From Eubacteriales bacterium (GTDB taxonomy: Bacteria > Bacillota > Clostridia > Oscillospirales > CAG-272), in contig JAZQRU010000042.1 in assembly GCA_045629745.1 (NCBI GenBank), positions 24,358 to 88,357 on the forward strand: a DNA stretch of 64,000 nt, written 5' to 3'. Below are positions 4,153-57,468 of the stretch, piece by piece. How positions within the stretch are numbered: the stretch's first letter is position 1; each line of letters begins with the position of its first letter. Below the pieces are notes generated by a model. The model was not told the origin of the DNA and did no database searches. It was given only the letters and a program-made list of their open reading frames with translations. A program made the translations under genes and the position numbers.

Positions 4153-4380
4153 ACGAAAGAGGCTGTCGCATAAAGACACAACCGAAAACAAAAAAGCGAA
4201 GTGGGAATTTTTCTGCACCTCGCTTTTTAGCTTGAGTACTTTGACAAAGGGTTAAGGTTGAAAACCTTTGGTTTTGATGCGGTTGGCGAACCTACATCTA
4301 TTATACCGAAGGAGGATGTCTTTTTCTACGCATAGCTAAAGCTTTTTACTGCCACCAGTAGTGCTGGCGGTTGATGTTAT

Positions 4381-4415
4381 ACAAAACAAGACCGAGAGAC
4401 AATTCTCTCGGTCCT
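4381..4415 (-). terminator. Rho-independent terminator of the acyltransferase gene (hairpin usable on both strands)
   Basis: GACCGAGAGA-caat-TCTCTCGGTC (4390-4413) immediately after the stop codon, with a T-rich run on the minus strand. Confidence 0.7.
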
Positions 4416-4419
4416 ATTT

Positions 4420-5745
4420 TTATTCGTCACATTTTTTGTCACATTGTTCCCGAACCTTACATTCCTTTGATTTTAAATGTAATTCGGCACTTGTTTTTTT
4501 GAAAAGCTCCTCTGTTGCAAGACGGGCTTTAGTAACTATTTCATTCTTGCATTTAGGGAAGCAATAAAAAAGCGCCTTTGAGTTTCCTATCGAAATAACG
4601 TCGCCGATTTCGTACCAGTTGAAGTCGGAATTCAAGGTATATGAGGCGAGAGGCTTTTGCTCGTAATCAAGCGCGCCGTCGCATCCCGTGAGCTTAAAGC
4701 CCTCACCCGTGTGAAGAAGATTGCCCTCTCCGACGTGGTAAAGATGCTTTGTGTCAACAGTCATACAGATGTCTACGGGTACGTTAATTTTATAAGTTCC
4801 CTCTTCTACTTCACGCTTGACGCACTCTCTTTGCCAATTGTACCACGTGGGTATATGGTCGAATTTTGTTTCAGCTGTGGTTGATTTTAAATAGCCGTAT
4901 TCGTCAAGGATATACGCATTTCCGCACGACTCGCATTTGATTTCGATGCCCTTGCCCTTCATTTCACCCTCGGAAAGACAGTCAGGACATTTATAAAGCA
5001 AGCGATTTAAGTAATCTGCCCTAAACGGCTCGTCTACCTTGATTTTATTTTCCTTTTGCCAAGCAAAGCTATCAAAGGAAAATTCAGCATTTATTTTCTC
5101 GTTTATCTCGTCACAGCTAAGCGCTTCAACGTCCTCGCGAGTGAGAAGAAACTCCTCTTTTGCCGACACCTTTACTTTGCGGCGCTGAAGATTATTATAA
5201 AGAGGATCGCGGTGATACGCGCCAAAGGTTTTAATCATAACTACGGGAACTTTTAAAAGCTTTATGCACTTTCCCAGGCTCTGCGGCAAAACGGTTGCGG
5301 TTCCGTCAAACGAATATCCCGCTTCGGGAAAAAGGACTACGGAGCTTTTCTTTTCCCGAAGCGCGTATTCCATATCGTGTATGAGAGTCAGGTCGTTTAC
5401 AAACTTTTTCGTAGGAATGCAGCCTATACTTCTCATAAGCCAGTTTTTGCCTATGAAGCCGTCTGTTGTAGTTACAATATTAAAGGGGCGCGGATAAAGC
5501 ATAGTTGCCACTATTTCAAGGTCGATAAAGCTTGAGTGATTTACAAGATAGAGGCAGTGCTCTCGCTTCCCGAGCTTCTCCATACCGACTCTTTCAAAGC
5601 TAAAAGAAGTTTTCTTAAGGTCCGGGATAGAAACAAGACGCATAAGGGTGCGAAAAAACATATTTGGGCGCTGGGGCTTTTTATGCTTTTGCTTCGGAAG
5701 TGCCATTACTTCCTCGTAAGACTTTTCTGTGATTTTAATCTTCAT
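4420..5745 (-). CDS. PlsC-type lysophospholipid acyltransferase with C-terminal Cys4 zinc-ribbon-containing domain
   Basis: HX4D motif (VNHSSFIDL) and FPEAG block. C-terminal half has CPDC...CESC. Start moved to ATG 5745 (MKIKITEK...), which follows a GAGG SD; the ORF-track start at 5781 lacks one. Confidence 0.7.
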   Translation of the reverse strand: MKIKITEKSYEEVMALPKQKHKKPQRPNMFFRTLMRLVSIPDLKKTSFSFERVGMEKLGKREHCLYLVNHSSFIDLEIVATMLYPRPFNIVTTTDGFIGKNWLMRSIGCIPTKKFVNDLTLIHDMEYALREKKSSVVLFPEAGYSFDGTATVLPQSLGKCIKLLKVPVVMIKTFGAYHRDPLYNNLQRRKVKVSAKEEFLLTREDVEALSCDEINEKINAEFSFDSFAWQKENKIKVDEPFRADYLNRLLYKCPDCLSEGEMKGKGIEIKCESCGNAYILDEYGYLKSTTAETKFDHIPTWYNWQRECVKREVEEGTYKINVPVDICMTVDTKHLYHVGEGNLLHTGEGFKLTGCDGALDYEQKPLASYTLNSDFNWYEIGDVISIGNSKALFYCFPKCKNEIVTKARLATEELFKKTSAELHLKSKECKVREQCDKKCDE

Positions 5746-5840
5746 AAAAACCTCGCTTGGATTTTTCTTGACGCTGTTCAATTATTTTAACATATTTAAG
5801 ATAAAATTTCAATAGATAATTAACATTTGAATGTATTTTG

Positions 5841-52133: not shown

Positions 52134-54773
52134 TTAAATTTTCATTTTTCTTCTCTCGAAAAGCTTAACAAGCTCGACAACGGGAATAACTATAAGTCCG
52201 AGTCCGATAGCGATAAGATACTCAACTTTTCCTACGCTTGCGAAGCCGAATGCAACGGCAATAAACGAAATTTCGCATACTGCGGTTGTAGCAAGCAACG
52301 AGCCGAGACACGCAAACCAAAGAACCTTGTTATTCGAGCGAAGTCCAAAAATGCTTCCTCTTTGCGAGCGCATATTAAAGCTATGGAAGATTTCTGCCAT
52401 AGACATCGTTAAAAACGCCATCGTCATACCTTTTGCGCTGTTTCCTATTCCCCAAGCGCCAAATTCGATAGAGTAGCCTATAAAGTAAGAGAAAATCGTG
52501 AGAAGCGTTACAAGAACACCCTGATATGCGATATCAATACCCATACCGCCCGAGAAAATGCCTGCCTTTGCATCACGCGGCTTACGGCGCATAATGTTTG
52601 GCTCTGCCTTTTCCATTCCGAGCGCAAGCGCCGGGAAGCAGTCGGTAACGAGGTTTATCCAAAGCAGGTGAACGGGCTTAAGAATAGTAAAGCCGAGAAG
52701 CGTTGCAAAGAATATCGAGAGCACCTCACTCATATTCGAGCCGAGAAGGAACTGAATAGCCTTACGTATGTTATCGTAAATACGGCGGCCTTCCTCTACC
52801 GCGCCGACGATAGTTGCGAAGTTATCGTCTGTGAGAACCATATCCGCAACGTTTTTCGTTACGTCAGTTCCCGTAATACCCATTCCGACGCCTATATCCG
52901 CATTCTTGATAGAGGGTGCATCATTAACGCCGTCACCCGTCATAGCGGTAACGTAGCCCGCCTTACGCCAAGCATTGACTATACGTGTTTTATGCTCGGG
53001 CTGAACGCGCGCGTAGACGCTTATATCCTTGAATTTTGTTTCAAATTCTTCGTCGCTCATTTCATTAAGCTCGGCGCCCGTGATAGCATAGGTATCTTCG
53101 GTGATAATTCCAAGCTCTTTTGCAATTGCAACCGCGGTGTCAATATGGTCGCCCGTTATCATAATCGGGCGGATACCTGCGCTTCTGCACTCAACTATTG
53201 CGTCCTTAACCTCAGGACGAACAGGGTCTATCATACCGCAAAGTCCAACGAAGCAAAGATTTTGTTCAAGATAATCCGCATCATAATTATCGGGCTCGAC
53301 TTGCCATAATCTCATAGAGCAAGCAAGAACGCGGAGCGCTTTATCCGCCATCGCCTTATTTGCTGAAAGAATAGAAGCTACGTATTCCTCGCTAATAGGC
53401 TCGGGCTTGCCGTCTTTAAGATAGTGCGTGCATTTTCCGATAATTACGTCGGGCGCACCCTTGGTATACTGAACGTAAGAGCCGTTTGCCAAGTGAACGG
53501 TGGACATCATTTTTCTGCCAGAGTCGAAGGGAGCTTCTCCCGAACGGGGATTTTCAGCCTTCAAGTCGTACTTTTTCATACCGAGCTTATCTGCCCAGAC
53601 TACGAGAGCCGCCTCGGTAGGCTCACCCGTAACGTTTCCGTCGTTATCTATTTCCGCATCACAGCAAAGAGCCATTGCTTTTGCTATCACGTTTTCATTT
53701 TCGCCGAAGAAATCAACGACGGTCATTTTATTCTGAGTCAAAGTACCGGTTTTATCGGAGCATATAATCTCGGCGCAGCCAAGAGTTTCAACCGCGGTAA
53801 GACGGCGAATAATGGCATTGCGGCGCGACATATTTGTAACACCAATGGAAAGAACGACTGTAACAACTGCCGCAAGTCCCTCGGGAATAGCGGCAACCGC
53901 AAGCGAAACGGCAACCATAAACGACGGAAGTATCGTGTTGTTAAAGCTGAAGTCTCCTGCGCGTATAAGCTGAATGCCAAATACTACGACGCAAATACCG
54001 AGAACAAGCCAGGTCAAAGTCTTTGAGAGCTGATTAAGCTTTCTCTGAAGGGGAGTTTCACCCTCCTCTGCATCTTGAAGCGCGCCTGCGATTTTACCCA
54101 TTTCAGTGTCCATACCCGTTGCGGTAACTACCGCCGTACCTCTTCCGTATACTACGGTTGAGCCCATATAGAGCATATTCTTACGGTCACCGAGCGGAAC
54201 GTCCTTTTCATTATCCTTTAAATAGATAATGTCAATAAATTTGGTGACGGGAACGGACTCACCCGTGAGGGCGGCCTCTTCAACCTTAAGGCTTGCGTTT
54301 TCAAGTATTCTCGCATCTGCGGGAACTGCGTCGCCCGCTTCAAGAAGAATGACGTCACCAACAACCAAATCCTCACTGTGTATTATCTGCACCTTTCCGT
54401 CGCGCAGAACCTTTGAGGTAGCCGCTGACATTTCCTGCAAGGCCTCGATAGCCTTTTCCGCCTTGCTCTCCTGATAAACACCGAGAACCGCGTTTACCAT
54501 AACAACTGCAAGAATGATAATAACGTCCGCAAAGCTCTCGCTTTCGATAACGGCAAGAACACCGCTTATAAGAGCCGCAATAAGCAGAATTATAATCATA
54601 GGGTCTGCAAGCTGTTCAAGAAAACGGCGGAATATGGATTTGCCCTTTGCAGCGGCAAGCTTATTTTTACCGTTTTCTTCAAGTCGGCGCGCAGCTTCTG
54701 AAGAGGAGAGTCCTTCCTTTGAGCTTTCAAGGCTTTCGAGCACCTTTGCGCCGTCTTCGCAATAAAATTTCAT
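52134..54773 (-). CDS. P-type ATPase, P2 (Ca2+/Mn2+-transporting) type
   Basis: ...TGES..., phosphorylation motif ICSDKTGTLT, ...MITGDH..., ...TGDGVNDAPS...; 879 aa; about 10 TM. Confidence 0.9.
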   Translation of the reverse strand: MKFYCEDGAKVLESLESSKEGLSSSEAARRLEENGKNKLAAAKGKSIFRRFLEQLADPMIIILLIAALISGVLAVIESESFADVIIILAVVMVNAVLGVYQESKAEKAIEALQEMSAATSKVLRDGKVQIIHSEDLVVGDVILLEAGDAVPADARILENASLKVEEAALTGESVPVTKFIDIIYLKDNEKDVPLGDRKNMLYMGSTVVYGRGTAVVTATGMDTEMGKIAGALQDAEEGETPLQRKLNQLSKTLTWLVLGICVVVFGIQLIRAGDFSFNNTILPSFMVAVSLAVAAIPEGLAAVVTVVLSIGVTNMSRRNAIIRRLTAVETLGCAEIICSDKTGTLTQNKMTVVDFFGENENVIAKAMALCCDAEIDNDGNVTGEPTEAALVVWADKLGMKKYDLKAENPRSGEAPFDSGRKMMSTVHLANGSYVQYTKGAPDVIIGKCTHYLKDGKPEPISEEYVASILSANKAMADKALRVLACSMRLWQVEPDNYDADYLEQNLCFVGLCGMIDPVRPEVKDAIVECRSAGIRPIMITGDHIDTAVAIAKELGIITEDTYAITGAELNEMSDEEFETKFKDISVYARVQPEHKTRIVNAWRKAGYVTAMTGDGVNDAPSIKNADIGVGMGITGTDVTKNVADMVLTDDNFATIVGAVEEGRRIYDNIRKAIQFLLGSNMSEVLSIFFATLLGFTILKPVHLLWINLVTDCFPALALGMEKAEPNIMRRKPRDAKAGIFSGGMGIDIAYQGVLVTLLTIFSYFIGYSIEFGAWGIGNSAKGMTMAFLTMSMAEIFHSFNMRSQRGSIFGLRSNNKVLWFACLGSLLATTAVCEISFIAVAFGFASVGKVEYLIAIGLGLIVIPVVELVKLFERRKMKI

Positions 54774-54810
54774 AAAAAACTCCTTTCAATTTAATTTTAC
54801 CCCAAAAAGA

Positions 54811-54922
54811 GAAAAAAATGACAAGACTTGCTCTTACGAACTAAGTCTTGTCATTTAAGATAAAGCCAAGAAAACTGTGATGTTGACTTTACCACACTTC
54901 CGTGCCGACTACTCCCTTAAGG
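54811..54922 (-). promoter_or_regulatory. yybP-ykoY-like (Mn2+) riboswitch with terminator expression platform
   Basis: Minus strand UUAAGGGAGUAG-UCGGCAC-GGAA-GUGUGGU-AAAGUC...GGCUUUAUC...AUGACAAGACUUAG parallels the L. lactis aptamer blocks (GGGGAGUAG, AAAGUC, GGCUUUGU, AGCAAGACC). ATGACAAGACTT/AAGTCTTGTCAT forms a 12-bp terminator plus T7 (54811-54854) overlapping the 3' aptamer strand. Confidence 0.6.
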
Positions 54923-54947
54923 GTATTAAATTCAATTAACACTATGA

Positions 54948-55012: not shown

Positions 55013-55135
55013 CACGGCATAGCCGTGTATATCATCAACACGGAGTGTTGCATATCACCAAAACACAGTTTTGTATATCATCAACCCGCATCGAATACAC
55101 GCTTCGCGTGATGATATACCAAGCCTGCGGCTTGG
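55013..55135. repeat. Iteron-like array: three 23-bp-phased direct repeats, one inverted copy and five triloop hairpins
   Basis: TGTATATCATCAA (55026), TGCATATCACCAA (55049), TGTATATCATCAA (55072); inverted TGATGATATAC (55109). Hairpins CACGGCataGCCGTG, CAACACggaGTGTTG, CAAAACacaGTTTTG, CACGCttcGCGTG, CCAAGCCtgcGGCTTGG. Confidence 0.65.
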
Positions 55136-55297
55136 ATAAAAAAATATTTTTGTTCTCTTTAGTTTGGGTTTGAACTGCCGTGCTATTTGGTGAAATGGAA
55201 TCTTTGTTCTAAAATATCCAACGCTTATTAACAAGAGTTTTCTTCATTTATTCTCTTTCGCGGTGTTGAGAGAAGCTATCAACATTCTTTTGATTTC

Positions 55298-55600
55298 CTA
55301 TGCTAAAGAAAGAAGCTTGTCAAAATCATAAGCTATCAAATTTGTTCTTTTGAGCAAGGTGAGCCAATAAATACTTTCTCCTGTTTCTTTTAAAGAAATA
55401 TGTAACTTTGAAATAAAATCTGCTTTGCTGTTTCCGTATATGGCTTCATTTATGTTTGCACCGACACTCGTCGCGGAACGCAGTAATTGCTTTGCAATCG
55501 TCGTATCCTTTTTGCTTTTAGAAAACTCTTCGTAGAAAAGTACGGTTTGCGTCGCAAAATCCATAGATTTTTCAAGTAATGGGCTATTCATTGTCTTCAC
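55298..55600 (-). CDS. Four-helix-bundle protein (23S rRNA intervening-sequence protein / Avd fold family)
   Basis: ...QLLRSATSVGANINEAIYGNSKADFISKLHISLKETGESIYWLTLL... is the family signature; about 100 aa, so possibly slightly short at the C-terminus. Confidence 0.8.
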   Translation of the reverse strand: MKTMNSPLLEKSMDFATQTVLFYEEFSKSKKDTTIAKQLLRSATSVGANINEAIYGNSKADFISKLHISLKETGESIYWLTLLKRTNLIAYDFDKLLSLA

Positions 55601-55614
55601 ATCTCTTTGTAATC

Positions 55615-55643
55615 ATTGTATCACGTTTTATAATGAAAATCAA
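55615..55643 (-). promoter_or_regulatory. SigA-type promoter of the four-helix-bundle gene
   Basis: Minus strand TTGATT, 17 nt, TACAAT. Confidence 0.5.
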
Positions 55644-55671
55644 TGCTTTTCGACTATCGGGAGAAAAGCTA

Positions 55672-55752
55672 CCTTTTCTCTTCTCTTTTCTCTCTTATCT
55701 CTTCTCTGGAAAAGTCGCATAGGAGATTTAGAGAAAAGTGAAGAGTGAAGAG
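55672..55752. repeat. Polypyrimidine tract folding back on a polypurine tract (imperfect long hairpin)
   Basis: 36-nt CT tract CCTTTTCTCTTCTCTTTTCTCTCTTATCTCTTCTCT (55672-55707) followed by AGGAGATTTAGAGAAAAGTGAAGAGTGAAGAG (55721-55752). TTTTCTCT/AGAGAAAA and ATCTC/GAGAT pair. Confidence 0.55.
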
Positions 55753-55753
55753 T

Positions 55754-55789
55754 ACAAAAAGAAAAAGCCGCTTACGCGACTTTTTCTTT
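55754..55789 (-). terminator. Rho-independent terminator of tRNA-Ser
   Basis: Minus strand AAAAAGUCGC-guaa-GCGGCUUUUU then CUUUUUGU. The G-U pair makes it specific to the minus strand. Confidence 0.6.
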
Positions 55790-55790
55790 T

Positions 55791-55880
55791 TGGCGGAGAA
55801 GAAAGGATTTGAACCTTCGCGCCGGTTGCCCGACCTACACCCTTAGCAGGGGCGCCTCTTCACCACTTGAGTACTTCTCC
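55791..55880 (-). tRNA. tRNA-Ser (anticodon GCU)
   Basis: Minus strand GGAGAAG...CGCCC-CUGCUAA-GGGUG, long variable arm, GAAGGTTCAAATCCTTT T-arm, CTTCTCC acceptor, G discriminator and encoded CCA; 90 nt. Confidence 0.95.
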
Positions 55881-56232: not shown

Positions 56233-57468
56233 CTATAGCAGCGTAGAGCGATTTTCAGTTTTGTTTTTTAAGCTCTCGCGGTACTCCTTCGGGCTTTTAC
56301 CCGTATGCTTTTTGAAAAGCTTTGAGAAATACTGCAAATCAAGTATTCCCGAGTGGAGCGCTACGGTTTGTATTTGCAAATTGGTGCTTGCGAGAAGATA
56401 CTCCGCGTTTTCCATTCTTCTCTCTCTTATATACTCCGTAAGGGTTTTTCCCGTTTCCTTGCGAAAAAGCGCGGAAAGATAACCGGGGCTTATATTTTGG
56501 CTTTTTGCAAGAGAGTTTAAGGAAAGCTGGGCGCTTAAATCGGAGTCGATAATAACCATAACTCCCCTTATAAGCGGAGAGTATTTTTTTACGGAGTGGT
56601 TTCTGACTAGATGGCAATAGCTTCTGAACATTTCGGTCATTAGGGCGAAGCTTCCCGAAAGGCTTTTCATAGCCTCGATTTTTAAAGCAAAATCCGAGGA
56701 AACACGATCAATATACATAGGGTGAACACCGCCCGTTTCCGCCGCCTTTCTAAGTAACGTATTCATAATAATTCCGTAGTTTTTTGCGTTTCTTAAAGGA
56801 CTTTCGGCTCGCTTTTCAAAGGTGTTTTCCGTAAACGCACCGAGCAGCTGCTTTTCCGCATGAATTTGCCCGAGAGATACAGCCCTTATAAGCTCGTTTT
56901 CAAACTCGTAACGCTTTTCCATAATTCTCATTTTCAAAACCGCGTCTTCTCCGTCTTCAAGCTTAGGACTCATTGCGGATGCAGGCATAGGACCTGAATT
57001 GTTGACGTCTATAATCAAAAACGAGGGACTTTTGAAAATACGCTCAAGAAAGCTATCAAGAAAGAAGAAAATTTTGCTCTCTGCCGATAACACGGGAAGA
57101 ATTGAATAATACTCCTCAAGATAACGCTGGCGCGAGGGTAAAACACCGTTTTTTTCGCCTATCTCAAACATTTCGGATACGGACAAGCCCTCTTCGAGAT
57201 ACGGGCCGACGAAAAACACGGTTGGAATTTCCCTCTCGGGAAGCAGAAAATATCTATAGCAAAGCTTCATTCCGTCACTTGCCTTGTAAAGACAGCTCGG
57301 CTTGAGGTTATGTGCCGACACCGCTTTCGGATTTTCTTCTCCGAAAACTCTTTCAAGTCCCATGCGGAATCTGAAAAAGCCATCACCGTCAAGCTTTACC
57401 TCCGTTGCGTTAAGTCGGCATTTTCTGAAGCCTTCCCTAATTAAATCAAGTTCGTTTTTGTAAAACAC
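56233..57468 (-). CDS. AraC-family transcriptional regulator
   Basis: C-terminal double HTH (...LNSLAKSQNISPGYLSALFRKETGKTLTEYI...QIQTVALHSGILDLQYFSKLFKKHTGKSPKEYR); divergent from a sugar-utilisation operon. Confidence 0.85.
   Translation of the reverse strand: MFYKNELDLIREGFRKCRLNATEVKLDGDGFFRFRMGLERVFGEENPKAVSAHNLKPSCLYKASDGMKLCYRYFLLPEREIPTVFFVGPYLEEGLSVSEMFEIGEKNGVLPSRQRYLEEYYSILPVLSAESKIFFFLDSFLERIFKSPSFLIIDVNNSGPMPASAMSPKLEDGEDAVLKMRIMEKRYEFENELIRAVSLGQIHAEKQLLGAFTENTFEKRAESPLRNAKNYGIIMNTLLRKAAETGGVHPMYIDRVSSDFALKIEAMKSLSGSFALMTEMFRSYCHLVRNHSVKKYSPLIRGVMVIIDSDLSAQLSLNSLAKSQNISPGYLSALFRKETGKTLTEYIRERRMENAEYLLASTNLQIQTVALHSGILDLQYFSKLFKKHTGKSPKEYRESLKNKTENRSTLL

Follow-up and report, generated by a model that had tools for sequence, protein, structure and literature searches.

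Phased tandem mini-hairpins with a fixed 8-nt linker in gut Clostridia: a divergent relative, by architecture, of the orphan Gut-1 motif

The closest described relative of the array analysed here is the Rfam family Gut-1 (RF01706). Weinberg et al. (2010) classed Gut-1 as a noncoding RNA and, on the basis of its covariation, rated it as certainly an RNA (PMC2864571); beyond "human gut only", the text of that paper says little about it (PMC2864571). Three hairpins in succession, with stems that covary and a conserved purine-rich linker between them, define the motif; the consensus of the linker is GUGAAAU, with GUGAUAU (the reverse complement of ATATCAC) in some seed rows. The motif is extragenic, not cis-regulatory and located downstream of a gene's or tRNA's terminator. 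In Rfam, a single strand of one Gut-1 half is modelled as an sRNA. In seed rows a tRNA and terminator lie upstream, the linkers read GUGAUAU, and both a UGCC-UGC-GGCA hairpin and an inverted half with AUAUCAC are present; some of the seed contigs carry matches every 240 nt, in tandem clusters.

Two further groups of elements invite comparison. The REP/BIME/REPIN sequences of proteobacteria are short extragenic palindromes found at gene ends, after terminators and in both orientations, often as head-to-head pairs or clusters, with a conserved short single-strand tag beside the hairpin. The roles proposed for REPs are in supercoiling, in termination and in the stability of mRNA, and their folded single-stranded DNA is recognised by RAYT transposases (PMC3733652); the tag at the foot of the hairpin is GTAG or CGTC (PMC3733652). 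The second group comprises the virion-RNA polymerase promoters of phage N4, the complementary-strand origins of G4, St-1 and alpha3, and ssiA/ssiB of RSF1010. Each is a single DNA hairpin with a 5-7-bp stem and a C:G-closed GNA (or GNNA) loop, is active on one strand only, tolerates free variation of its non-conserved stem bases provided that pairing holds, and extrudes at physiological supercoiling. In the oriV of RSF1010, the strand-specific signals lie on opposite strands. Triloops of the d(GNA) type closed by C:G are exceptionally stable in DNA, whereas their RNA forms are much weaker (PMC3201870; PMC13037366), and such hairpins extrude at physiological supercoiling, with the GNA strand alone staying folded (PMC4496689).

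We analysed a 64-kb stretch of DNA (hereafter, the window) in which a preliminary description had pointed out phased repeats interleaved with small palindromes. The array, at 55013-55135, consists of tandem mini-hairpins joined by a fixed 8-nt linker. Its + strand half-array comprises three 23-nt units, each a perfect 6-bp/3-nt-loop hairpin of 15 nt followed by the 8-nt linker YATATCAY; a short centre follows, and then two like units on the - strand, the right-hand part of the array being a second half-array, inverted. The outermost unit of the + half-array opens with hairpin H1 (CACGGC-ATA-GCCGTG; 55013-55027, + strand), which is in phase with the other units, and continues with linker S1 (TATATCAT; 55028-55035, +). 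The second unit is made up of hairpin H2 (CAACAC-GGA-GTGTTG; 55036-55050, +), with a GNA triloop closed by C:G, and linker S2 (CATATCAC; 55051-55058, +), with the core ATATCAC, reverse-complementary to the GUGAUAU linker of Gut-1 seed rows; the third is made up of hairpin H3 (CAAAAC-ACA-GTTTTG; 55059-55073, +) and linker S3 (TATATCAT; 55074-55081, +). The centre, CAACCCGC + ATCGAATA (degenerate inverted linker; 55082-55097, assigned to no strand), aligns with the conserved ..CTGCGGnTTGATGA.. in the middle of related arrays. On the - strand, the inner hairpin H5 (55098-55110) reads CACGC-GAA-GCGTG, a GCGAAGC-type mini-hairpin (CACGC-TTC-GCGTG on +), and is separated by the inverted linker (55111-55118, -; ATGATATA on +, equal to TATATCAT on -) from the terminal hairpin H6 (55119-55135, -), which reads CCAAGCC-GCA-GGCTTGG on - and CCAAGCC-TGC-GGCTTGG on +. 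Beyond H6 lie A/T tracts (ATAAAAAAATATTTTTG; 55136-55152, no strand), placed by alignment with related arrays. In those arrays, tracts of this kind flank a bidirectional intrinsic terminator stem; the window is without the stem, and a terminator scan called none at 55136-55152.

Each element of the preliminary description was recovered. The 13-mer TGYATATCAYCAA occurs at 55026, 55049 and 55072, a spacing of exactly 23 bp, and with at most one mismatch it has 4 matches in the window vs 0.13 expected, a number reached in 0/100 shuffles. The inverted copy, TGATGATATAC at 55109-55119, can also pair with 55073-55083 (S3 with its flanks) over 11 bp, or over 14 nt at 93%. All five palindromes with 3-nt loops are present (55013-27, 55036-50, 55059-73, 55098-110 and 55119-35). 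Perfect 6-bp/3-nt-loop palindromes number 47 in 64 kb, four of them inside the 123-bp array, corresponding to a Poisson P of ~2.5e-6 per 123-bp span and ~1e-3 after correction for ~520 spans. H2 and H3 differ by the compensated change noted before (CAACAC/GTGTTG vs CAAAAC/GTTTTG), and the array is retained in six same-species contigs, where differences fall mainly in loops and the centre. Compared with shuffles, RNA folding of the region gave z = -4.5 (+) and -3.5 (-), and folding with DNA parameters gave z = -5.5 (+) and -6.8 (-) and predicted exactly the serial hairpins. The strands were scarcely told apart by the ViennaRNA RNA and DNA nearest-neighbour parameters because these carry no GNA bonus. 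A single large RNA fold, pairing linker with inverted linker, is unsupported because the linker variants TATCTCAT and CATATCAT are uncompensated in their nested partners.

The array has relatives elsewhere. A pattern scan of metagenomes returned arrays of equal linker, period and hairpin geometry with other stems in contigs L091, L103, L127, L155 (two arrays), L159 (two arrays) and L182; that of L224 came from a look-up of the AraC orthologue rather than from the scan. These homologous arrays, from metagenome-assembled genomes of gut and rumen Clostridia, stand in unrelated contexts. Arrays from such contexts display 71-80% BLAST identity and have specific hairpins, even terminator stems, in common, and a dozen or more unrelated contigs carry this architecture with stems that differ yet pair perfectly. 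H6 is identical in L155a, L159a and L224 and similar to the UGCC-UGC-GGCA hairpin of Gut-1 seed rows, and in the alignment the same three arrays carry a CACGC hairpin at the position equivalent to H5. Homologues of H1 carry a compensated change (CACGCC...GGCGTG in L159, L103 and L159b) or the CACGGC stem (L182). The preliminary description had proposed conservation in relatives as a check, and its outcome was divided: the motif is absent from the relatives' orthologous loci and conserved as a dispersed family elsewhere.

Preservation of pairing rather than of sequence, first suggested by H2 and H3, holds across this family. Perfect full-length hairpins account for 22 of the 25 inter-linker segments in these arrays; for all 42 inter-linker segments of both subfamilies, shuffles give 0.07 perfect hairpins. 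Among 21 aligned units, double changes were found at 5 of the 6 stem pairs (36 cells) and single-sided changes at none, with a covariation score of 0.78 vs 0.14 in shuffles; these units were preselected as perfect hairpins, and the count of inter-linker segments is the unbiased one. The linker core ATATCA does not vary across the 21 units. Triloops on the linker strand are strongly asymmetric (R-N-A 25 vs T-N-Y 1, p = 8e-7), C:G closes the loop of 33 units out of 40, and the asymmetry changes strand at the centre of each array. G.T pairs amount to one in roughly 150-230 stem pairs. Among the units GNRA and CUUG tetraloops are also present, and no UNCG loops were found on the linker strand. The original observation is confirmed as correct and was understated.

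How does the family relate to Gut-1? Rfam assigned no family to the window array at gathering or permissive thresholds, and a comparison with RF01706 gave no match at E <= 10 (on 1.6 kb, and on 181 nt). A sister subfamily with the linker ATATCAC comes close to the gathering score of 50 (L168, 49.8/44.0 bits; L194, 45.1; L179, 32.8), with RF01706 matching L168 on both strands. The window array and Gut-1 both have at least 3 tandem small hairpins with variable, covarying stems, a fixed 7-8-nt linker, a ~23-nt period, an end hairpin of the GCC-UGC-GGC type, an extragenic location following a terminator or tRNA gene, without a cis-regulatory arrangement, and an origin in uncultured gut Firmicutes-type DNA. 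The window array and the seed-row variants have the linker core TGATAT/ATATCA in common, but the full linker of the window is longer and different, (T/G)TGATGATATAC = G-YATATCAY-CA. Half-arrays are convergent in the window subfamily and divergent in Gut-1 seed rows, L168 and L179. In contrast to the single strand of one half modelled by Rfam, halves here lie on both strands, and the loop statistics point to the strand opposite to Rfam's Gut-1 orientation. Judged by its shared architecture and by the intermediates, the window array is a divergent relative of Gut-1, a match that gives the array a name, not an explanation. A covariance model of our own, R1, matched the - half-array at 55092-55163 (-; 24.4 bits, E = 0.0085), a stretch left out of its training. 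R1 also cross-detects both subfamilies at 23-39 bits, but pattern-selected junk tandem repeats reach 35 bits as well, and this cross-detection was not counted as independent evidence. At 4369-4395 (-) a terminator is followed by TTTTGTATAACATCAACCGCC, which agrees with 55068-55086 at 18/19 positions and may be the remnant of a second element; R1 made no detection there.

The genomic niche of the arrays is narrow. Seven of the eight aligned arrays lie directly behind an intrinsic terminator, the window array (the eighth) keeping A/T tracts only, and polarity relative to the upstream gene is constant in all eight. The unit upstream is tRNA-Pro, tRNA-Met, tRNA-Asn, tRNA-Gln or a truncated tRNA, and tRNA-Ser in the window; the L168 array follows a 23S-tRNA-5S-tRNA operon. 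Downstream, the next -35 lies 0, 16, 27 or 36 bp away. In L194, six units take up all the space before the ribosome-binding site of a potA-like gene, and in L182 four units lie between serC and serA. Unidirectional arrays are found in either orientation relative to the flanking genes.

In the window, the surrounding genes encode a P-type ATPase, a four-helix-bundle (4HB) protein, tRNA-Ser, an AraC-type regulator and an MFS transporter. The near-consensus sigma-70-type promoter of the ATPase (TTGACA-17-TAGAAT; 54976-54948, -) has its -35 hexamer 36 bp from the H1 end of the array, in agreement with the ~40 bp previously estimated. On the other side, the array lies downstream of the 4HB ORF (55298-55591, -; 97 aa, truncated vs ~116 aa in homologues), part of a dispersed 4HB gene unit (PF05635/TIGR02436; 55244-55764, -) outside the array. 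Next come the intrinsic terminator of tRNA-Ser (55755-55792, -) and tRNA-Ser(GCT) itself (55791-55880, -), an upstream transcription unit of the kind that such arrays normally abut. The 4HB unit appears to have been inserted later between the tRNA-Ser terminator and the array. The order in the window is tRNA-Ser, terminator, inserted 4HB unit, array, promoter, and relatives have the same order without the insertion.

No annotated neighbour accounts for the array, as was stated at the outset. Eighty orthologous ATPase loci (L007-L086; best 87% amino acid identity) keep the leader and are without the array, and the orthologous ATPase loci together with the 4HB loci, 792 kb in all, yielded no hit. 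One of the roles first proposed, a structured 3'-UTR belonging to the 4HB gene, is not supported, as the 4HB unit ends at ~55244 and occurs in many genomes without any array. The 4HB protein was also considered, and rejected, as a general partner of the array: the window and L091 have 4HB beside the array, but 17 loci of close homologues are without one. Searches of the window revealed no direct repeat of the tRNA-Ser 3' end that would mark an island boundary, and no IVS-like inverted repeats were found flanking the 4HB gene. Direct repeats of the tRNA 3'-end type do occur in L225/L226 and L246. Promoters phased with the period were discarded, -35/-10 spacing being incompatible with 23 nt, as was complementarity of the linker to stable RNAs, for which the longest word in common with RNase P RNA, tRNAs, the 23S 3' end/5S or 6S is <=6 nt. 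A search of the literature for the motif and for tandem hairpins turned up nothing specific.

Taken together, these findings indicate that the array probably belongs to a dispersed family of extragenic elements carried by Clostridia of the gut and rumen. The anatomy of the family is well supported: a unit of 22-24 nt in which a mini-hairpin of 5-7 perfect Watson-Crick pairs is joined to the 8-nt linker YATATCAY; stems that are usually CA...TG, with a mostly R-N-A loop closed by C:G; and a layout in which several units on one strand face several on the other. Equally well supported is the niche, nearly always directly behind an intrinsic terminator, often that of a very highly transcribed tRNA or rRNA unit, and ahead of the next promoter.

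What such an element does can be proposed with modest confidence, since the mechanism, including a putative binding protein and putative extrusion, is read from the anatomy. We suggest a REP/BIME-like boundary element that would act when the strands separate. Each palindrome would fold to a mini-hairpin on the strand that bears YATATCAY, and the linker would stay single-stranded as the sequence-specific contact for a putative protein; opposed half-arrays would allow the element to work for either strand or direction. The folded species would preferably be DNA rather than a free-standing RNA, either extruded by supercoiling or transiently single-stranded during replication or transcription. Family identity and this mode of action, taken as one explanation, fall somewhat short of an even chance, and folding at the level of DNA rather than RNA is itself a tentative preference, close to balanced. 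DNA is favoured because the G.T pair is almost absent from the stems, because C:G-closed d(GNA) triloops are stable in DNA and weak in RNA, because the linker strand is devoid of UNCG loops, because halves lie on both strands and unidirectional arrays in either orientation, because no consistent promoter is found upstream of the arrays, and because the DNA-parameter folds predict the serial hairpins. Both the statistics of the loops and the scarcity of G.U pairs lean towards DNA. Constant polarity to the terminator and the position between units suit an RNA-level or co-transcriptional role equally well. The GNRA and CUUG tetraloops, types favoured in RNA, and the rating of Gut-1 as an RNA by Weinberg et al. 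count against the DNA reading. Convergent layouts and the divergent layout of Gut-1 proper put opposite strands first, and no simple polar replication model fits both.

The REP-like style and extragenic position suggested in the preliminary description are borne out, although the likeness to known elements has bounds. REP stems are conserved within a genome and present in tens to hundreds of copies, whereas here the stems vary and copy number looks low; one array in the 64-kb window, and none in the ATPase and 4HB loci, is unlike classical REPs. The flank of the array is YATATCAY rather than the REP tag, no RAYT-like gene was seen next to arrays in the window and short contigs, and the hairpins, only 15 nt long, are far shorter than those of REPs and follow a regular phase. 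As for the phage and RSF1010 signals, those are single hairpins that lie at a start site and are recognised by a known polymerase or primase, whereas here 5-8 hairpins are phased, with another conserved flank and no replicon or phage context.

The strongest competitor, which we nonetheless consider unlikely, is a co-transcriptional RNA element, a bidirectional fail-safe terminator or insulator that would shield the next promoter from a strong tRNA or rRNA unit, with read-through RNA folding into small hairpins and AU-rich 8-mers or being cut or bound there. The position of the arrays after primary terminators and before the next promoter, their constant polarity, their association with tRNA genes and an rRNA operon, and the RNA folding scores are all in its favour, as is the location of the stable loops, in the window subfamily, on the strand transcribed first from either side; moreover, clusters of hairpins have been proposed as terminators (PMC8355165). 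However, the linker is not U-rich (3-4 T in 8), yet is conserved far beyond the needs of an AU-rich tract, a scan for intrinsic terminators (GC-rich hairpin plus U-tract) was negative inside 55013-55135, and a strong terminator would be harmful at the potA-like and serC/serA sites. The scarcity of G.U pairs and the weakness of C(GNA)G triloops in RNA likewise speak against it.

A free-standing small ncRNA, as Rfam files Gut-1, is improbable. On this view, a promoter of its own would drive transcription of half or all of the array, the transcript would stop at the shared bidirectional terminator, and its repeated linker-hairpin units would sequester an RNA-binding protein, as CsrB or a sponge RNA does. 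Protein-sponge RNAs do have repeated identical single-stranded linkers between hairpins, and in the window subfamily a + transcript would stop at the bidirectional terminator beside GGATAAAAAAA; the filing of Gut-1 as ncRNA by Weinberg et al. also counts here. Against this stand the failure to call a + strand promoter upstream of H1 or to find, by eye, a conserved -35/-10 at fixed distance upstream of relatives' arrays, the switch of functional-looking loops between strands in mid-array, the matches of RF01706 to both strands of L168, the free orientation of unidirectional arrays, and the 240-nt recurrence in Gut-1 seed contigs, which is odd for an sRNA gene.

Little probability attaches to a non-autonomous mobile element, or substrate of an HUH (Y1/Rep-type) single-strand nuclease, that would spread, terminator included, through such an enzyme, a reading that overlaps the DNA-level part of the boundary-element explanation. 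A hairpin with a conserved flanking oligonucleotide is the recognition mode of IS200/IS605 TnpA, RAYTs, relaxases and rolling-circle Rep. Homologous arrays with similar terminator stems behind different genes and tRNAs, variable presence and absence among related genomes, and the tandem clusters of Gut-1 seeds would fit mobility. CTTG/ATA is the nick motif of pC194/phiX-type origins and TTGAT is the target of ISDra2, and YTTG/ATGATATA resembles such motifs, although we treat this as a lead only. On the other side, no transposase or Rep gene lies next to the arrays examined, no target-site duplication or clean empty site was found, copy number is low in the sequence examined, and the stems of the two arrays on one contig differ (L155; L159), unlike those of recent copies. 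A filled-versus-empty comparison gave no clean pair, as the fucosidase and AraC orthologue contigs differ in neighbours.

Double-stranded iterons, with the 13-mers (or the 12-mer TGYATATCAYCA as duplex site of an operator array) bound by an initiator of replication, by a recombinase or by a multimeric protein regulating the ATPase promoter, are very improbable. Plasmid iterons typically have a 22-23-bp period, and the three phased 13-mers with an inverted copy nearby, just upstream of a strong promoter, resemble them. The replicon version, offered in the preliminary description, is opposed by the absence of an adjacent rep, par or recombinase gene, of a GC-skew switch (origin or terminus) in the window, and of BLAST matches of the array to plasmids and phages, viral contigs yielding unrelated tandem repeats only; nor is the array conserved with any replicon. 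The operator version fares no better, since the 80 orthologous ATPase genes retain the promoter-proximal leader but have no array, like arrays adjoin unrelated genes, and the distance to the next -35 is not fixed. Both versions are largely refuted. Moreover, duplex binding leaves perfect palindromic spacers with strand-specific loops unexplained: here, unlike in iterons, the spacers are obligatory palindromes and the element is dispersed behind chromosomal terminators. Finally, a functionless local duplication of a 23-bp unit with a chance palindrome, although it predicts the 74-78% identity of units 2 and 3 to unit 1, is hardly credible and already contradicted by the family evidence, namely different perfect stems in unrelated contigs, a related motif already curated in Rfam, and retention in six same-species contigs with changes mostly in loops and centre.

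Our preferred reading remains the boundary element folding as a single strand. For Gut-1, an orphan motif since 2010, this analysis supplies a host context (Clostridia of the gut and rumen), a precisely defined place in the genome just after the terminators of stable-RNA genes, and a second, Gut-1-like subfamily that was previously undetected, together with features relevant to mechanism: halves on both strands, a DNA-type loop repertoire and perfectly Watson-Crick stems. The covariance model and the pattern ATATCAY-N16 x3 are usable for a census of the family and for a search for partner proteins by phylogenetic profiling. It is conceivable, though we hold it with less than even confidence, that the Gut-1 class, the window array included, may be no RNA but the clostridial counterpart of REP/BIME, consisting of phased C(GNA)G DNA mini-hairpins behind tRNA and rRNA terminators that would be extruded, or folded on an exposed strand, and serve through a linker-specific protein as a two-way boundary, for example as a buffer of supercoiling, a barrier to polymerase or helicase, or a place for priming or nicking. 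A family filed by Rfam as an 'sRNA' would then have to be reinterpreted as a structural element of DNA, with a two-strand, strand-switching architecture as its signature. If the DNA-level reading is true, the family would also represent a new case of non-B DNA as regular genomic punctuation in Firmicutes, and would caution that covariation by itself does not prove an RNA.

The array at 55013-55135 is real and non-random. Its layout was established by base-by-base reading of the window. On the + strand, hairpin H1 (55013-27, CACGGC-ATA-GCCGTG) is followed by TATATCAT, H2 (55036-50, CAACAC-GGA-GTGTTG) by CATATCAC and H3 (55059-73, CAAAAC-ACA-GTTTTG) by TATATCAT, after which comes a 16-nt centre. 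The half-array on the - strand comprises two units of the same kind: an inner inverted hairpin (55098-110, CACGC-GAA-GCGTG), an inverted linker (55111-18, TATATCAT) and a terminal hairpin (55119-35, CCAAGCC-GCA-GGCTTGG). This order of hairpins and linkers indicates that the true unit is a hairpin of 15 nt followed by the 8-nt linker YATATCAY. The preliminary description had instead singled out a 13-mer, TGYATATCAYCAA, at 55026, 55049 and 55072 (spacing exactly 23 bp), and the pairing of an inverted copy (55109-55119) with 55073-55083; all of these sequence claims were correct, and the 13-mer represents the linker together with the conserved ends of the stems (..TG / CA..). The repeat excess also survived a shuffled control: with at most one mismatch, the 13-mer has 4 matches in the window compared to 0.13 expected, and 0/100 shuffles reached 4. 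Perfect palindromes with 6-bp stems and 3-nt loops number 47 across the window, with four inside the 123-bp array. Relative to shuffles, the two strands of the array folded with z = -4.5 and -3.5 as RNA and z = -5.5 and -6.8 as DNA, and DNA-parameter folds reproduced the serial hairpins exactly. The locus is ~99% identical in six same-species metagenome contigs, whose few array differences fall mostly in loops and the centre.

Genes and units near the array all lie on the - strand, in the order AraC-type regulator (56233-57468), tRNA-Ser(GCT) (55791-55880, with a consensus promoter of its own and, at 55755-55792, an intrinsic terminator), four-helix-bundle (4HB) gene (PF05635/TIGR02436; 55298-55591), array, near-consensus promoter of the next unit (54976-54948), structured leader with an attenuator-like terminator, and Ca-type P-ATPase (52134-54773). 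Rfam at E <= 10 returned only tRNA in the array region. As had been proposed, none of the annotated neighbours accounts for the array. The array, 4HB gene and tRNA are absent from the upstream regions of ATPase orthologues in 80 genomes (gut and rumen Clostridia MAGs; best 87% aa identity), and our own covariance model of a 3-unit half-array gave no match across the 792 kb of ATPase-orthologue and 4HB loci. The 4HB gene belongs to a separate dispersed unit, with 55764-55244 showing ~75% DNA identity to copies in many genomes and unrelated contexts; the protein has >120 cluster representatives (89-99% identity), and the window copy is C-terminally truncated (97 aa vs ~116 aa). Since the 4HB homologue loci scanned in other genomes contained no array, the array's placement in the 3' flank of this gene holds as a position only.

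The 4HB unit (55244-55764, - strand) carries a promoter of its own, with a CT-rich inverted repeat upstream (55673-55750). Many copies lie on very short contigs, often with a GNAT acetyltransferase gene next, and their conservation exceeds that of the housekeeping genes on either side (at most 87% for the ATPase and 77% for AraC); at L229, an IS (DDE_Tnp_1) interrupts the region upstream of 4HB. The ATPase leader (54774-54940, - strand) is a conserved riboswitch-like attenuator ordered RGGGAGUAG, variable hairpin, AAGUCAACA, variable hairpin, GGCUUG...GAGACU and intrinsic terminator (54816-54856 plus a T-run). It precedes most of the 80 ATPase orthologues, with stem variation that appears compensating by eye. 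Its GGGAGUAG/GAGAC signature is reminiscent of the yybP-ykoY Mn2+ riboswitch, but RF00080 (yybP-ykoY) gave no match to the leader, and Rfam 15 gave no family match to it in the window, nor in 10 relatives at gathering score.

We searched for the family with a metagenome pattern scan (ATATCAY-N16-ATATCAY-N16-ATATCAY), whose output consisted mostly of ordinary tandem repeats but also included arrays sharing linker, period and hairpin geometry with different stems. Subfamily 1 comprises the window, L091, L103, L127, L155 and L159 (two arrays each), L182 and L224, the last obtained via an AraC orthologue. Read in the sense of the flanking genes, subfamily-1 loci run from an upstream gene through a bidirectional intrinsic terminator to TTTTTTTATCC and a terminal hairpin, which is CCAAGCC-GCA-GGCTTGG at four loci. 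Next come 2-4 linker-hairpin units, a conserved centre and 3 inverted units, and the following gene has its promoter 0-36 bp further on. Five loci have a tRNA upstream (tRNA-Pro, tRNA-Met, tRNA-Asn, tRNA-Gln or a truncated one), and two have a protein gene there. BLAST identity between arrays from unrelated contexts is 71-80%, and such arrays have particular hairpins, even related terminator stems, in common, demonstrating a dispersed element and ruling out a locus-specific operator. Compared to its relatives, the window lacks the terminator stem beside the A/T tracts; the sole other difference is the interposed 4HB unit, which with ~100 nt separates the tRNA-Ser terminator from TTTTTTTATCC and would represent a later insertion.

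Our model scored 94 bits on its training half and 24.4 bits (E = 0.0085) on the inverted half, and found nothing else in 64 kb. It did not detect 4369-4395 (- strand), where TTTTGTATAACATCAACCGCC follows the terminator of a gene at 4420-5781, matches 55068-55086 at 18/19 positions and precedes a small hairpin; this site could be one decayed unit of the family. Terminators beside arrays are related across differing tRNA or gene contexts (L224 6631-6665 vs L155 88-128; L159 668-703 vs L127). One stem, AACTTTTG...CAAAAGTT, is shared with a reverse-complemented loop (TCTAC vs GTAGA), and another related pair has its two stem arms swapped, which suggests that array and terminator move together and that hairpin loops can flip. 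A 130-aa protein gene at L155 (335-727) has arrays on both sides, and a 94-aa protein gene at L159 (138-422) lies directly downstream of one; neither has an assigned function, and the two genes closely resemble each other in the regions of the ribosome-binding site and promoter. An integration hot spot lies downstream of tRNA-Ser(GCT). At two AraC-orthologue loci (L226 2386-2412, L225 5810-5836), the 3' end of the tRNA recurs ~225 bp further on as a 27-nt direct repeat, and the terminators are duplicated, an arrangement resembling an att-type scar; L246 (1-300) carries a similar partial duplication of a different tRNA 3' end.

Subfamily 2 (L129, L168, L179, L194, L199) is characterised by the linker ATATCAC and by 16-nt hairpins whose loops are GTAA or GAA. 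At L194 (1180-1340), six units occupy all of the space from a cupin-type regulator gene to the ribosome-binding site of a potA-like ABC ATPase; in subfamily 1, four units at L182 (630-730) follow the serC stop codon, and a terminator-like hairpin then closely precedes the ribosome-binding site of serA. These unidirectional arrays in apparent operons do not fit easily with a role as simple terminators. Subfamily 2 approaches Gut-1 (RF01706; gathering score 50), with 49.8 and 44.0 bits at L168, 45.1 at L194 and 32.8 at L179. The L168 array ends a 23S-tRNA-5S-tRNA operon and matches on both strands (1142-1213, +; 1233-1316, -), with UUC/UUGC loops in the Rfam orientation and GAA/GCAA on the other strand, indicating that the Rfam model describes one half of a two-strand element. 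The Gut-1 consensus has three hairpins separated by GUGAAAU; seed rows contain an upstream tRNA and terminator, linkers reading GUGAUAU and a UGCC-UGC-GGCA hairpin, their flank holding an inverted AUAUCAC half, and some seed contigs match every 240 nt. As to occurrence, the original description of Gut-1 names only human-gut metagenomes; it rates the motif as ncRNA, not cis-regulatory, with 43 representatives (PMC2864571). The window array gave no RF01706 score, including in a search of 181 nt at E <= 10, and cross-matches of our model to subfamily 2 (23-39 bits) are not independent, since pattern-selected junk repeats reach 35 bits. We therefore class the window array as a divergent relative of Gut-1, not a member by the Rfam criterion; its halves converge, whereas those of subfamily 2 diverge or stand alone.

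Perfect whole-segment hairpins occupy 22/25 inter-linker segments in subfamily 1; shuffles of all 42 segments from both subfamilies gave 0.07. Among 21 aligned 6-3-6 units, variation affects 5/6 stem positions, in every case on both sides (36 cells) and never singly, with a covariation score of 0.78 vs 0.14 in shuffles; because these units were preselected as perfect, the segment tally is the unbiased count. Read on the YATATCAY strand, the loop-closing pair is C:G in 33/40 units, triloops conform to R-N-A in 25 cases and to T-N-Y in 1 (p = 8e-7), and tetraloops across the 40 units include GNRA-type and CTTG but not TNCG. At each array's centre this asymmetry passes to the opposite strand, and each half is thus 'read' on a strand of its own. 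One large fold was disfavoured, as linker variants are uncompensated in nested partners. Taken together, these findings demonstrate a dispersed, terminator-proximal element of phased hairpins, in which a defined strand of each half shows selection for pairing and loop type and the single-stranded linker is strictly conserved.

We tentatively favor folding of the hairpins at the DNA level, a reading with somewhat less than an even chance. C:G-closed GNA triloops are a hallmark of exceptionally stable DNA mini-hairpins, their RNA versions being much weaker (PMC3201870; PMC13037366), and GNA mini-hairpins extrude at physiological supercoiling, with only the GNA strand staying folded (PMC4496689). 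Unidirectional arrays in either orientation relative to genes also favor DNA, as do the near absence of G.T pairs from stems, halves on both strands, and no consistent promoter found at arrays. RNA is favored by the unvarying polarity of arrays behind terminators, by the GNRA and CUUG loops and by the Rfam classification of Gut-1. A co-transcriptional RNA barrier is the strongest rival, albeit an unlikely one; a free sRNA is decidedly improbable. Mobilisation by an HUH enzyme, similarly doubtful, would overlap DNA-level folding rather than compete with it. Duplex iterons or operators are very improbable, as the array is absent at the 80 orthologous ATPase loci and present in unrelated contexts; the earlier suggestion of an iteron or multimeric regulator array is therefore without support, and that of a REP-like element came closest. 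The linker would provide the contact for a sequence-specific factor, and the array would form a boundary between transcription units. The window array is a variant of the Gut-1 kind, which is known but functionally uncharacterised, and its two-strand architecture, DNA-type loops and niche behind stable-RNA terminators go beyond the description in the available portion of the 2010 Gut-1 paper.
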